Shown: positions 5,680-13,101, counted from the first letter of the stretch. The stretch is 64,000 nucleotides of DNA from an uncultured Caldilineaceae bacterium (GCA_964443075.1 CAYUCB010000001.1:23778-87777); one strand, 5' to 3'. The notes: generated by a model from the letters alone, not told the origin. Numbers and translations are program-made.

Positions 5680-5726
5680 AAAAGACCCTGAAGGTTATAA
5701 AAACCTTCAGGGTCTTTTTTATTTTT
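5680..5726. terminator. Bidirectional intrinsic terminator between convergent genes (aaagaccctgaaggtt-ataaaa-accttcagggtcttt + T-run)
   Basis: 16-bp stem with a T-run on the plus strand and an A-run on the minus side. Confidence 0.7.
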
Positions 5727-6135
5727 CCAGCGACCCAGCCCCATGCGCCTGCACCCAGCCGGCCATGCCGCCTTGCAGGCTGGCTACCTGCTCCGCCGGC
5801 CAGCCGCGCTCCAGCAAATAGCCGGCCGCGCCGATACTGGTATTGCCATGCCAACATTGAAACACTACCTCTGCGTCTTGGGGTAGCTCGTTAACCCGGG
5901 CGGGAATCTCATTCACAAACATATGCACCGCCCCCGGAATATGACCGTATTGATACTCCCAGGTCTGGCGCATGTCTATCACCACCAGGTTGTCGCCGTT
6001 AGCTAAACGGGCCTTTAACTCCTGGGGCGAAATCTCCTGAATTTTTACCGGTTCAGGTCTGGGTGGCGGAGGAGCTGACGGTGTGATTGGAGTCGCTTCT
6101 TCTTTGCCGCCAAAAAATTTCTTAAAAAAACTCAT
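5719..6135 (-). CDS. Rhodanese-domain sulfurtransferase (single domain, Pro-rich N-terminal linker)
   Basis: Active-site loop 'CWHGNTS' and 'LVVIDMRQTWEY..GHIPGAVHM'. Sits immediately downstream of the E1-like gene, as in split MoeZ. Confidence 0.75.
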   Translation of the reverse strand: MSFFKKFFGGKEEATPITPSAPPPPRPEPVKIQEISPQELKARLANGDNLVVIDMRQTWEYQYGHIPGAVHMFVNEIPARVNELPQDAEVVFQCWHGNTSIGAAGYLLERGWPAEQVASLQGGMAGWVQAHGAGSLEK

Positions 6136-6167
6136 CGGTTGGATGCTCCTGCAAATTAATTTTATCT

Positions 6168-7199
6168 CTAATTGCCCACGTATTTAGCGTACAAACCCCG
6201 CGCCACACTTTCATCTTCGGTGCCTTTGATGATGGCCCGCGCATCGGCAAAGAGGGTGATTTCATAGGCGTCTACGCTAAAGCGCAGCAGATAATCATTC
6301 TGGGCCAGCATCCGGCTGACTCCCGCCAGCCGTTCGGCCAGTTGGGCCAGGGGCAGCCGGTTGCTCCCCGGCATTCGTAGCTGCACCGCGTTGCGCCCGC
6401 ACAGGTTAGCCACCTGCCCGCCGCGCGCCTCGTGGAGAAATTCAAAATTTCGCTGGCCGCAGGCCGGGCAATCGGGGCGCGGCCCGCCGGTATCAAACTG
6501 TTCAAAGGTGTTATACCATATATCAAAATGGCTGACCCCCTGGTTGAGCGTCCCCTGACCCACAATGAGTTTAAGGGCCTCGGCGGCGCTGATGCTGGCG
6601 ACCACCCCCACAATTGGGCCAACCACTCCGGCGGTATCGCAAGTAGCCACTGTGCCGGGCAGCGGTATATCGTTAAAAAGGCAGCGCAGGCAGGCCGTTT
6701 GGCCGGGGATAATGGTCTGACTCATCCCGTAAGAAGCCACCACGCCGGTGTAAATCCAGGGGAGATTATGTTTGAGGCAGGCATCGTTGAGCAGATAGCG
6801 CGTTTCAAAATTATCGGTGCCATCCATCACCAGCGTGGCCCCGGCGATGAGCGCCTCGATGTTCTCCGCGTTGACATCGCTTACCAGGCCGGTTACCTCA
6901 ATTTCAGAGTTGATGGCCCGCAGTTTGCGCTCGGCGGCCACCGCTTTGGGCAGGTTATCGGCCAAATCTTGCTCGTCAAACAGCATTTGGCGCTGCAAAT
7001 TATTCAGTTCGATGAAATCCCGGTCAACAACGGTTAAGTGGCCCACCCCGGCTCGGGCCAGGTGATTGGCGATGTTGGTGCCGGTGGCCCCGCAGCCGAT
7101 GATGACGACGCGGGCCGCCAGTAATTTTTGTTGACCTTCCACGCCAATGCCGGGGAAGATGGTTTGGCGCAAGTAGCGGGAGAGGTTAGGGTTAGCCAT
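6168..7199 (-). CDS. ThiF/MoeB-family E1-like adenylyltransferase with a C-terminal MoeZ/MoeB-like zinc (CxxC..CxxC) region
   Basis: Rossmann 'GCGATGTNIANHLARAGVGHLTVVDRD'; 'CLRC' ... 'CPAC'; about 343 aa. Confidence 0.85.
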   Translation of the reverse strand: MANPNLSRYLRQTIFPGIGVEGQQKLLAARVVIIGCGATGTNIANHLARAGVGHLTVVDRDFIELNNLQRQMLFDEQDLADNLPKAVAAERKLRAINSEIEVTGLVSDVNAENIEALIAGATLVMDGTDNFETRYLLNDACLKHNLPWIYTGVVASYGMSQTIIPGQTACLRCLFNDIPLPGTVATCDTAGVVGPIVGVVASISAAEALKLIVGQGTLNQGVSHFDIWYNTFEQFDTGGPRPDCPACGQRNFEFLHEARGGQVANLCGRNAVQLRMPGSNRLPLAQLAERLAGVSRMLAQNDYLLRFSVDAYEITLFADARAIIKGTEDESVARGLYAKYVGN

Positions 7200-11273: not shown

Positions 11274-11685
11274 CCATAATTTCTAACGCCACTCCCTTAA
11301 AGCGGCGCGGCTCATCATCGGCCAGTTGCCATATCTGGGTCTGAAAAGGTTTACCCTCATGCACCGACACTATTAGATAATACACCTCTTCCCAGGCGTT
11401 ATCCATATCGGTTTGGGAGGGGATGGCCGGCCAATCGGGGTGGGAGTGGTAAATGCCGATGATCTCCAGCCCGGTTTCGTCGGCGGCCAGCTGCACCTCG
11501 GCAAATTCTTCGCCGCTGATGATGAAGCGGTCGGTGCGCTCGCTGTTTTGATTTATTGCGGGGCGCACCTGGCGCACCTGACCCCCGTTTTCAAAGCTGC
11601 CCAGCAAAAAGCCGCAGCACTCCGGCGGATAGGTTTCTTTGGCCTGAGCGTAAATTTGTTTCAGTTGGGCGTCGGTAATTTTCAT
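11257..11685 (-). CDS. JAMM/MPN+ (Mov34) metalloprotease, Mec+/CysO-deconjugase-like
   Basis: Glu in 'PPECCGF' and 'HSHPDWPAIPSQTD' (H-x-H-x7-S-x2-D); 142 aa. Confidence 0.85.
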   Translation of the reverse strand: MKITDAQLKQIYAQAKETYPPECCGFLLGSFENGGQVRQVRPAINQNSERTDRFIISGEEFAEVQLAADETGLEIIGIYHSHPDWPAIPSQTDMDNAWEEVYYLIVSVHEGKPFQTQIWQLADDEPRRFKGVALEIMDEKVL

Positions 11686-11691
11686 AGCCCA

Positions 11692-13101
11692 CTATCTTCT
11701 AATCTTCAACGGCGGTTTGGCTCGGGCGGTGGCCCCACGGGCGGGCAGGCCGCGATAACTGGGGGCCAGGATTTCAAAGGGAGTGCAGCGGCCCACATCC
11801 ATTATCAACGATTTGAGGCGCGGTTTCAGGTCAATATCTTTGGCCATCGTCACGACGGTGGGGAGGCGGGCGTTGTAGCGGTGGTTGAAAAGCTGGTACA
11901 GTTTCTCTTCGGCCCAAGGGGTGGCGCTTTCTGTGCCGAGGTCATCTAAAACTAGCAGGGGCGATTGGCGCACTTCGTCAAACCGCTTATCGTAGGGGGT
12001 CAGGCTGTTGGGGTTAAAGGCGGCCCGCAGGTGATCCAGCAAATCGGGCACTACCACAAACAGGGCCGGTTCGCCCCGGTTGACCACGTCGTTGGCAATG
12101 GCGGCAGACAGATGGGTTTTGCCGCAGCCATAAGCCCCGGAAAAGGCAATCCAATCGCGCGGACGGGCGGCGTATTCACGGGCAAAGGCAAAGGCCCGCT
12201 TTAGATTTTCGGCTTTTTCCCGGTCCAAGTCATTTTCGCGCAGGCTAAAGCTGTCAAAGGTCTGGTCGGCGTGCAGCGAGAGGCTGGATAGTTCCGAAGC
12301 GCCCTGGGTTACACCAATTTGACGAAAATCCGGGGCCATAATTTTGATAATTTGGGCCAGGTCGGGGTCAACCATGCGCGAGCGGATGCGGATGTCAATT
12401 TCTTCTAACTCATGGTTAGAGGTAACTACGGTGGGCAGTTGGGCGTTGTAGCGATAGTTGAACAATTGAAACAATTTTTCTTGCGCCCAGGGGGTGGAAC
12501 TATGCGCTCCCAGATCATCTAAAATGAGCAGTGAGGCGTTGCGGATTTCTTCAAAGCGTTTATCCAGGCTGGTGGTGCTGTGGGGGCTAAAGGTGGCCCG
12601 CAAGTGATCCAGCAAATCGGGCACGACCACAAACAAAGCCGGTTTACCCTGGCCGATAACCTGGTTGGCAATGGCGGCGGCCAGGTGGGTTTTGCCGCAG
12701 CCGTAGCCGCCCAGCAAAACCAGCCAGCCTTCCGGTTGGGCGGCGAAATTATAGGCCATTTCAAAGGCCATGCGCAGATTGCGCCTTCTGTCATCAGTCA
12801 GACCGTAGCCATCGGCCACAAATTTCTCAAAGGTGTAACGGGTCATCTTATCCATATTACTAATGGCCCGCAGATCGTTAAACCGTTTGGATTCCTGTTC
12901 GGCCAGGCGGCAGCGGCATGGGACCAGTTTGCCAAAATCGCGGTGACCCACCGGCACATCCTGGCGCAAATAGCCGGTGCCGCCGCAGATGGGGCACAGC
13001 CACTCTTCGTCAACCGGCAGTCCGGCCTCGATGGGGCTGTTCAGCCACTCGTCGGGCGGCTCGATGGTTTGGCGTTTGAGAATTTCATCAAGTTGGTTCA
13101 T
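11692..13101 (-). CDS. DnaC/DnaI/IstB-like helicase-loader ATPase with an N-terminal zinc ribbon and a tandemly duplicated AAA+ module
   Basis: 'CPICGGTGY..CRC' zinc ribbon. Two near-identical modules: 'GGYGCGKTHLAAAIAN...LLILDDLG' and 'GAYGCGKTHLSAAIAN...LLVLDDLG'. The DNA-level duplication is visible as paralogous antisense ORFs 11965..12204 and 12580... Confidence 0.75.
   Translation of the reverse strand: MNQLDEILKRQTIEPPDEWLNSPIEAGLPVDEEWLCPICGGTGYLRQDVPVGHRDFGKLVPCRCRLAEQESKRFNDLRAISNMDKMTRYTFEKFVADGYGLTDDRRRNLRMAFEMAYNFAAQPEGWLVLLGGYGCGKTHLAAAIANQVIGQGKPALFVVVPDLLDHLRATFSPHSTTSLDKRFEEIRNASLLILDDLGAHSSTPWAQEKLFQLFNYRYNAQLPTVVTSNHELEEIDIRIRSRMVDPDLAQIIKIMAPDFRQIGVTQGASELSSLSLHADQTFDSFSLRENDLDREKAENLKRAFAFAREYAARPRDWIAFSGAYGCGKTHLSAAIANDVVNRGEPALFVVVPDLLDHLRAAFNPNSLTPYDKRFDEVRQSPLLVLDDLGTESATPWAEEKLYQLFNHRYNARLPTVVTMAKDIDLKPRLKSLIMDVGRCTPFEILAPSYRGLPARGATARAKPPLKIRR

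Follow-up and report, generated by a model that had tools for sequence, protein, structure and literature searches.

Stand-alone E1 and JAMM enzymes that act on small, unlinked beta-grasp proteins are known from archaea (UbaA/SAMP/HvJAMM1) and from Thermus (TtuC/TtuB with a JAMM protein), and the pan-genomes of E. coli and Pseudomonas contain hotspots in which defence genes have been integrated between genes of the conserved core. A counter-invader role has been predicted for a mobile operon of two genes that encode paired nSTAND2 nucleoside triphosphatases (NTPases) with variable effectors (Kaur, Iyer, Burroughs and Aravind, eLife 2021, PMC8195603, Fig. 6C), as it has for related nSTAND1/EAD systems, along with the concept of the EAD adaptor (eLife 2020, PMC7159879). 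The present study concerns a locus in the DNA of an uncultured Caldilineaceae bacterium (GCA_964443075.1 CAYUCB010000001.1:23778-87777; the whole stretch of 64,000 nucleotides is called the window below), in which three AT-rich genes, encoding a membrane protein and two STAND-type NTPases and here termed the cassette, lie between a JAMM metalloprotease gene and an E1-like adenylyltransferase gene. The explanation that we consider likely is that insertion of an AT-rich, defence-like cassette has interrupted a conserved sulfur-carrier-type module of JAMM, E1 and rhodanese genes, located beside replication genes; that the cassette acts against invaders is, within this explanation, also favoured, with noticeably less confidence.

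The seven genes of the block and the extent of the cassette, in the order of transcription and with positions counted from the first letter of the window, are as follows:

11692..13101, minus strand: DnaC/DnaI-like helicase loader (IstB_IS21 in two stretches, 1.7e-33; NCBIfam PRK08116 236 bits, cut-off 189)
11257..11685, minus strand: JAMM/MPN+ metalloprotease, Mec+/desampylase-like (Prok-JAB 2.3e-24, 85.9 bits, cut-off 25)
10368..11273, minus strand: TM301, membrane protein, first cassette gene (no Pfam, NCBIfam or PADLOC match)
8394..10364, minus strand: ATPb656, STAND-type NTPase, second cassette gene (ATPase_2 37.4, AAA_16 35.8 and nSTAND2 26.8 bits, each above its cut-off, which is 24 for nSTAND2)
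7208..8365, minus strand: ATPa385, minimal paralogous STAND-type NTPase, third cassette gene (AAA_22 29.9 bits, cut-off 27; nSTAND1 22.8 bits, below cut-off)
6168..7199, minus strand: E1-like adenylyltransferase of the ThiF/MoeB family, Bacillus-type, PRK12475-like (ThiF 2.8e-74, 249.7 bits, cut-off 28.1)
5719..6135, minus strand: single-domain GlpE-like rhodanese (Rhodanese 1e-18; GlpE model 61 bits, below its cut-off of 102)
7200..11256, no strand assigned: inserted AT-rich three-gene cassette, 4,057 bp, from the JAMM stop codon to the E1 start codon

An earlier note on this DNA, made from the sequence without database searches, had described seven tightly packed, co-directional minus-strand genes at 5719-13101, and all seven open reading frames (ORFs) were recovered where it had placed them. 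The successive spacers are 6 nucleotides (nt), a 17-nt overlap, and 3, 28, 8 and 32 nt, so that the tight packing was upheld while the range became 3-32 nt instead of the 4-33 nt given before. The 17-nt overlap of the JAMM and membrane-protein genes holds for the most upstream ATG, which yields a protein of 301 amino acids (aa), but not for the public gene call of the identical protein, which has 295 aa and starts near 11255, by inference at a TTG just past the JAMM stop codon. The domain content that had been proposed (DnaC-like, JAMM, ThiF-type E1, rhodanese and STAND-like ATPases) was borne out by Pfam and NCBIfam profile searches, and the two ATPases are indeed paralogous (about 25% identical along about 95% of the length of the shorter protein, E about 1e-22). 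The suggestion that the operon begins at the DnaC-like gene was right for the seven genes but not for the start, as the cluster continues upstream in the same direction through a DnaD-like gene to dnaB. A profile of guanine-cytosine (GC) content agreed with the remark that segment 7208-11273 is AT-richer: the cassette genes have GC contents of 0.44, 0.37 and 0.47 vs 0.54-0.59 in the neighbouring genes, and third-codon-position GC (GC3) of 0.42, 0.31 and 0.48 vs 0.61 +/- 0.09 in the remaining window genes.

The related loci show how this arrangement came about. A scan with the E1 protein of one genome per GTDB species returned 80 loci, onto which the window proteins were then mapped (loci are cited below by L numbers). 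In 20 Caldilineaceae/Anaerolineae GTDB-representative loci, JAMM lies directly upstream of E1 with no match to the three cassette proteins, usually with dnaB, a dnaD-like gene and a double-AAA+ dnaC-like gene upstream and a rhodanese gene downstream. Three metagenome loci (L097, L101 and L102) are likewise cassette-free, which brings the total to 23 empty sites; L097 contains the closest E1 relative found (89% identical to the window E1), and L102 belongs to a sample series that also yielded cassette-bearing contigs. In at least seven loci (L001-L004, L008, L097 and L101) the stop and start codons of JAMM and E1 overlap by 4 nt (ATGA), which couples the ancestral pair translationally. More distant Anaerolineae (L016-L021 and L025) keep JAMM and E1 together without the cassette, and the adjacency is therefore the ancestral state; among more distant Anaerolineae it persists without the replication genes. 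Since JAMM and E1 abut in 23 loci, 7200-11256 is an insertion into an ancestral JAMM-E1 pair that has the rhodanese gene downstream. The JAMM-E1 spacers of 114-225 nt in five loci (L007, L009, L015, L018 and L025) have no similarity to any cassette and contain no deletion scars.

These empty sites bear directly on the two readings that the earlier note had offered, a conflict system of NTPases linked to E1 and JAMM, and a sulfur-carrier pathway invaded by an ATPase island. The second is supported by the comparative data. In the first, the five genes from JAMM to E1 and the rhodanese gene would form one integrated system, in which E1 would use an unlinked ubiquitin-like protein (Ubl) to modify one of the cassette proteins, with JAMM undoing that step, comparable to Cap2/Cap3 in CBASS or to Bil/Bub. 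Such a system is considered quite improbable: the 23 loci, including the nearest relative and the outgroups, have contiguous JAMM, E1 and rhodanese genes and no cassette, and the ATPase genes are thus missing from orthologous loci, a finding that the note itself had named as speaking against linkage.

The order JAMM-TM-ATPase-ATPase-E1 (TM, transmembrane protein), which had been singled out as something to look for in other genomes, is missing from those 23 loci but recurs in at least five other lineages, where the TM301, ATPb and ATPa genes stand between JAMM and E1 (L081, L083-86, L089/90, L091 and L094). Even the closest homologues of the 656-aa NTPase share only about 50% identity with it, yet their contigs keep this order, and the cassette is AT-rich in the other lineages as well. 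Among these loci the cassette proteins are 47-78% identical vs 70-88% for the flanking proteins. By TM301 and ATPa, but not by ATPb, the window is nearest to L091, and the cassette is therefore a mosaic. In a neighbour-joining tree of the DnaC-like, JAMM and E1 proteins, which is star-like, cassette-bearing and cassette-free lineages are interleaved, which implies either repeated loss or spread by recombination between relatives; the presence of the cassette is patchy even among close relatives of one sample series. The cassette may have spread and been lost among relatives by homologous recombination in the conserved flanking JAMM and E1 sequences. Other cargo was also found at or near this junction. 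An AT-rich ORF of 222 aa without a credible Pfam match occupies the JAMM-E1 junction of a Caldilineaceae metagenome-assembled genome (L010, 9223-9891), a ParE-like toxin-antitoxin pair lies between ATPa and E1 in L081 (13012-13574), and in L089 (5792-6490) a PhdYeFM-PIN pair separates the dnaC-like gene from JAMM. Such unrelated cargo at the same junction is a further point against an integrated E1/JAMM/NTPase system.

The NTPase pair has also been found away from JAMM and E1. L087/L088 carry a divergent trio of TM (34% identity), ATPb and ATPa followed by rtcA, and the end of the ORF upstream of it is not a JAMM. ATPb-ATPa pairs with no TM301, JAMM or E1 nearby are present in L096 and L099 (both near uvrB), L098, L093 and the P0023 contig. 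A metagenome scan by the ATPa profile, based on two usable peptide patterns, gave 5 loci. In L096 (7012-8751), L098 (9907-11694) and L099 (9830-11060) the pair is followed by a gene for a dynamin-like GTPase; this is a sister cassette type, consisting of an ATPb with a C-terminal EAD7, an ATPa and the dynamin-like GTPase as the third gene. ATPa also has an EAD7 domain in L098, L099 and the P0023 contig, and an insertion of about 100 residues in L092, L093, L095 and L096. The constant core is the paralogous NTPase pair, and the third gene and the genomic site vary. For the proposal that E1 and JAMM control the cassette, the ATPase pair, and one TM-containing trio, without JAMM or E1 nearby are an additional difficulty, and nothing in the sequence comparisons supports a functional coupling between the cassette and JAMM-E1. 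The cassette may well be independent of both enzymes, from which it would borrow only transcription and translational coupling.

Compared with the systems already described, the cassette is a three-gene variant of the paired-STAND systems that computation has predicted, and it is both rare and uncurated. As in the paired nSTAND2 operon, adjacent paralogous STAND NTPases form a constant core that is present in all copies of the cassette and the sister cassette, the terminal modules of one partner are variable (TIR, PNP, EAD1 and EAD7 in cassette relatives), and the distribution is patchy and mobile-like, mostly among multicellular or filamentous bacteria. Formal membership is less clear: ATPb reaches 26.8 bits on nSTAND2 (cut-off 24) but scores higher on ATPase_2 and AAA_16, and ATPa is below the cut-offs of both nSTAND1 and nSTAND2, a weak nSTAND2 match having been obtained for the ATPa of L087. 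Several differences were also noted. One partner in the paired nSTAND2 operon has eroded NTP-binding motifs, whereas both cassette NTPases have intact Walker A and Walker B motifs (at 239-246 and 338-344 in ATPb, and at 48-55 and 149-155 in ATPa). The effectors of the paired nSTAND2 operon are GT4 or HEPN, neither of which occurs in the cassette, and the variable domains of the relatives are carried by the active-looking ATPb. Moreover, unlike that operon, the cassette has a third constant gene, TM301 or, in the sister type, the dynamin-like GTPase, and, unlike the paired nSTAND2 and EAD systems, the ATPb of the window has helical repeats and no recognised EAD or effector.

The proteins of the cassette allow its possible function to be considered further. 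The AlphaFold2 model of TM301 (predicted local distance difference test, pLDDT, 86.6) contains a helix at 16-37, strands at 53-160 and helices at 171-298, and supports a type-I-like topology with a signal or anchor helix, an extracytoplasmic Ig-like beta-sandwich (53-160), one TM helix and a cytoplasmic helical bundle, in keeping with the earlier description of the protein as bitopic. Foldseek returned only generic Ig-like-plus-TM matches. The family is small, comprising 23 clusters at 90% identity; when 1.84 billion proteins were searched exhaustively by profile, 118 representatives were recovered at E<=1e-3. No relative of solved structure was found by sequence for either ATPb or ATPa. The window ATPb is characterized by a helical repeat of about 60 aa without a Pfam match, present three times at the N-terminus and once at the C-terminus, while relatives of the protein have variable terminal domains, either N-terminal (TIR_2, the nucleoside phosphorylase PNP_UDP_1, EAD1 or PF20689) or C-terminal (EAD7), and also coiled repeats. 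EAD7 or another known domain was sought in the termini of the window ATPb, where Pfam at E<=10 gave nothing credible and the C-terminus aligns as a fourth copy of its own repeat; a homotypic adaptor was likewise rejected, as the hhalign probabilities for the ATPb repeats, the cytoplasmic bundle of TM301 and EAD7 were all <1%. The defence matches of ATPa are at the P-loop level only, with E of about 4e-6 or weaker (NCBIfam DS8_antiphage 24.9 bits, cut-off 790; PADLOC E>=0.005). From this architecture, ATPa and ATPb may act as an NTP-dependent hetero-oligomeric switch, with TM301 as an envelope-side sensor or anchor or as a membrane-directed output, and the TIR or PNP domains of relatives would deplete NAD+ or nucleotides.

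The same proteins could alternatively represent a lineage-specific transmembrane signalling or regulatory module of these filamentous Chloroflexota, for instance for envelope or cell-cell sensing, in which TM301 would be the receptor and the NTPases the cytoplasmic switch, the genomic site being a historical accident. The receptor-like topology of TM301, the absence of an enzymatic effector from the window ATPb, with its helical repeats only, the lack of a curated defence-model match and the lack of mobility genes would all fit such a module. It is nevertheless unlikely, because it fits poorly with the patchy presence in close relatives of the same sample series, with the mosaic nature of the cassette and its faster divergence relative to the flanks, or with the swapping-in of TIR, nucleoside-phosphorylase and EAD/Death-like domains that are typical of conflict systems; the AT-rich composition that the cassette has in common with the defence genes of the window and the toxin-antitoxin neighbours in L081 and L089 also speak against it.

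The split module itself has the features of sulfur-carrier enzymes. The JAMM motif (E22 and H80-x-H82-x7-S90-x2-D93) is intact, the best named match is the NCBIfam desampylase model (70.1 bits, below the equivalog cut-off of 130), and the nearest solved chain is 2kcq (3e-25), the nearest chains being small prokaryotic MPN proteins and PfJAMM1. The E1 aligns to PRK12475 over profile positions 3-338 of 338 with 356 bits (below the cut-off of 510), scores 252 bits on TIGR02356 ThiF (below 275) and 158 bits on MoeZ (below 647), and matches E. coli ThiF 1zud (3e-44) and MoeB structures. It has the nucleotide-binding loop (GCGATG, 35-40), a Cys4 zinc site formed by two CxxC motifs (CLRC, 170-173, and CPAC, 244-247) and the catalytic-loop cysteine (TCDTAG, 186-191) that are expected of the ThiF family. 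In addition, there is an extra C-terminal alpha/beta domain of about 95 aa with no sequence relative in the PDB, in which residues 270-343 are modelled as beta-alpha-beta4-alpha with a pLDDT of about 80-88 (65 for the whole protein); as a candidate fused ubiquitin-like domain it lacks a C-terminal GG, and the whole-protein model reaches a pLDDT of only 65. The rhodanese, which has an intact active-site loop (C94-WHGNT-S100) and is found downstream of E1 in many relatives, is the probable sulfur donor for E1. The earlier idea that it is the split-off part of a MoeZ was not sustained, since the E1 retains its own C-terminal domain of about 95 aa and an SDR gene often stands between E1 and rhodanese in relatives, including L010. 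Residues 1-35 of the rhodanese form an N-terminal extension, MSFFKKFFGG plus a proline-rich linker, which is also present in L010 and looks like an amphipathic membrane-targeting helix. As the cut-offs of the named NCBIfam equivalogs were all missed, the JAMM, E1 and rhodanese assignments are at the family level. By the chemistry known for ThiF/MoeB/MoeZ and the Mec+/CysO family, E1 would adenylate the C-terminal glycine of a ThiS/MoaD/CysO-like carrier encoded elsewhere, the rhodanese persulfide would turn the carrier adenylate into a thiocarboxylate, and JAMM would trim the carrier C-terminus or free carrier adducts.

The absence of a ThiS/MoaD/Ubl-type gene from the block, which had been pointed out before, extends to the rest of the 64-kb window, in which no ThiS/MoaD/CysO-like ORF and no plausible beta-grasp ORF ending in GG was found. 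There is likewise no linked beta-grasp carrier within +/-10 kb of the related Chloroflexota JAMM-E1 loci, and no thiG, moaE or cysM-type gene among the larger window ORFs that were scanned. A 70-aa ORF upstream of JAMM in L097 was examined as a possible ubiquitin-like protein and rejected for want of a terminal GG. In Planctomycetota, two loci that have this PRK12475-type E1 (L060, 9178-9486; L075, 8209-8502) contain a CysO-like ORF ending in AVAGG just upstream of E1, and these neighbours show what type of carrier this E1 subfamily can partner; in L075 a JAMM gene is located 1.2 kb downstream. Since E1 enzymes with several unlinked carriers are established (TtuC and UbaA serve several such carriers, and those of MoeZR are also unlinked), the missing ubiquitin-like gene is not anomalous. 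MoeZR serves both molybdenum cofactor (MoaD) and CysO-dependent cysteine synthesis (PMC3227635). A sulfur-related cluster on the plus strand of the window (18058-21775), comprising a PocR/helix-turn-helix regulator, a pyridine nucleotide-disulfide oxidoreductase, a DUF1641 protein and a DsrE/DsrF-like protein, has no sulfur-carrier gene with it.

Among described sulfur-carrier systems, Mec+/CysO/CysM with MoeZR and the Bacillus-type MoeB/ThiF share with the window a ThiF adenylation domain, a Cys4 zinc site, a catalytic-loop cysteine, a rhodanese donor and a JAMM peptidase. Unlike in MoeZR, the rhodanese of the window is encoded separately, and the C-terminal alpha/beta domain of the E1 is of another kind; unlike in the mycobacterial Mec+/CysO/CysM system, no carrier, cysM, thiG or moaE is present in the window, and the pair stands downstream of dnaB, dnaD and dnaC-like genes. 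As in the archaeal and Thermus systems, a stand-alone E1 and JAMM would act on small beta-grasp proteins encoded elsewhere, and desampylase is the best NCBIfam match of the JAMM, but its 70 bits are far below 130, and the window E1 belongs to a different subfamily. With CBASS Cap2/Cap3, Bil, Bub and 6A-MBL, the locus shares the clustering of an E1-like and a JAB gene with conflict-type NTPases. PADLOC JAB and E1-E2 models match JAMM and E1 weakly, and ubiquitin-like conjugation modules are known as accessories of NTPase conflict systems (PMC7159879), both of which would favour an integrated system. Unlike in those systems, however, the window has no E2, Ubl or CD-NTase, its E1-JAB pair is core-syntenic without the NTPases, and the defence profiles match generic E1/JAB cores only; Pfam, NCBIfam and PADLOC revealed no E2-like domain in any of the seven proteins, the PADLOC E1-E2 profiles covering only about residues 22-183 of E1, its adenylation core. 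The best full-length match of the E1 is a housekeeping MoeB/ThiF subfamily with a rhodanese partner, which also argues against integration.

Several observations weigh against the view that an independent defence cassette was inserted into a sulfur-carrier module. In at least five other lineages the cassette recurs at the exact junction, in the same orientation and with start and stop codons that overlap or nearly overlap at either end, which a chance insertion would not predict, and the retention of orientation and of stop/start overlaps on both sides of JAMM-TM-ATPb-ATPa-E1 in at least six distinct lineages is what an integrated system would lead one to expect. Furthermore, the identifiable close TM301 homologues on contigs >10 kb appear to share the contig with a close E1 homologue, which may again be read in favour of integration. 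No integrase, transposase, repeats or deletion scars were found at the insertion, and no mobility genes flank the cassette. A search for a target-site duplication or terminal repeats gave only a 7-nt coincidence (CTAACCT) in the window that is not present in other cassette copies, and phage and plasmid collections gave one viral match at 24% identity and two plasmid matches at 24-26%, none of which is a relative. On the functional side, TM301 and ATPb match no curated defence model (PADLOC v2 and NCBIfam), nor do their orthologues, and the cassette copy of the window has no recognisable effector domain (Pfam at E<=10 and repeat alignment); the defence role is therefore inferred from relatives only. 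In addition, the sulfur carrier was not found within the visible 64 kb. The exact-site recurrence may be attributed to shared descent and recombination among relatives. By analogy with Cap2/Cap3 in CBASS, one might also imagine that the cassette is wired to JAMM-E1, with E1 and an unlinked ubiquitin-like or sulfur carrier modifying an NTPase or TM301 and JAMM undoing this, so that the system is primed or restrained, which would explain its retention at the junction, with translational coupling at either end, in at least six diverged lineages; the chance of this seems slim, and if true, it would mean that a housekeeping-type ThiF/MoeB E1 has been co-opted to control a STAND immune switch without an E2.

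Under the explanation of a split sulfur-carrier module, the cluster would consist of three co-oriented units, namely the end of a run of replication genes (dnaB, the dnaD-like gene and the gene of a loader with a duplicated AAA+ module), the JAMM-E1 pair with the rhodanese, and the cassette. The surrounding features are:

13967..15328, minus strand: DnaB replicative helicase, upstream context (DnaB_C 1.5e-106, DnaB 7.4e-34; syntenic in related loci)
13183..13950, minus strand: DnaD-like replication initiation or loader accessory protein (DnaB_2 2.7e-4; TIGR01446 DnaD_dom 27.5 bits, cut-off 24.95; syntenic)
5678..5720, no strand assigned: hairpin (19-bp stem, T-runs) where the rhodanese and FtsX-like genes converge (terminator-like site scan)

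Classical helicase loaders have a single AAA+ module. The DnaC-like protein has an N-terminal Cys ribbon and two full tandem AAA+ modules (Walker A at 131-138 and 322-329, Walker B at 191-196 and 382-387), and this double form is kept downstream of dnaB and the dnaD-like gene in those Caldilineaceae/Anaerolineae loci that yielded a DnaC-like gene, and upstream of JAMM in Caldilineaceae-type loci. In three related loci (L015, 4341-7184; L017, 3964-6588; L003, 3455-6093) some 1.4 kb of additional sequence, absent in the window, interrupts or follows dnaB, which suggests a DnaB intein or insertion. With regard to transcription, a scan of 5500-16300 for terminator-like sites showed the 19-pair hairpin at 5678-5720 to have by far the longest stem, and no hairpin of comparable length between the genes of the block; this hairpin, situated after the rhodanese gene, is the probable end of the transcription unit. 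The numbers of promoter and terminator sites in the scans were not above those of shuffled controls. The best sigma-70-like match of the region (7397-7426, minus strand, TTGACA-18-TACAAT, 11/12) lies inside the 3' end of the ATPa gene, about 200 nt upstream of the E1 start, and could be an internal promoter that relieves the polarity of the insertion; because such sites are no more frequent than in shuffled controls, it was not used as evidence.

The only other genes of the window that are comparably AT-rich are defence genes. A PARIS-like pair on the plus strand (23873-25754, GC 0.41-0.44) encodes an AAA_15/AAA_21 ATPase (AriA-like, 3.8e-26) and a DUF4435 protein (AriB-like, 3e-13). A GmrSD_N/PADLOC HEC-05-like gene, also on the plus strand (53815-55521, 568 aa, 1.3e-44, GC 0.33), is located inside a nuo operon, between the nuoF-like (52334-53605) and nuoG-like (55783-58458) genes, and is the second defence gene of the window to be spliced into a core operon. 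The JAMM-E1 junction resembles the core-genome defence hotspots in that it is empty in some relatives, varies in its cargo among others (the 222-aa ORF, a toxin-antitoxin pair or the trio) and is occupied by sequence of foreign composition. Unlike at classic hotspots, the insertion is inside a translationally coupled gene pair and not beside a tRNA gene or integrase site, and no mobility genes are present.

What had appeared to be a Ubl-less system of E1, JAMM and STAND proteins is thus best explained as a chimera, in which a housekeeping sulfur-carrier module is combined with an inserted conflict cassette, and it warns against reading tight gene packing as functional linkage. As an insertion within an operon, the junction represents an unusual kind of defence hotspot, which discovery pipelines based on genomic islands could miss. 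These filamentous Chloroflexota appear to tolerate defence genes that are spliced seamlessly into core operons, as seen here between JAMM and E1 and between nuoF and nuoG.

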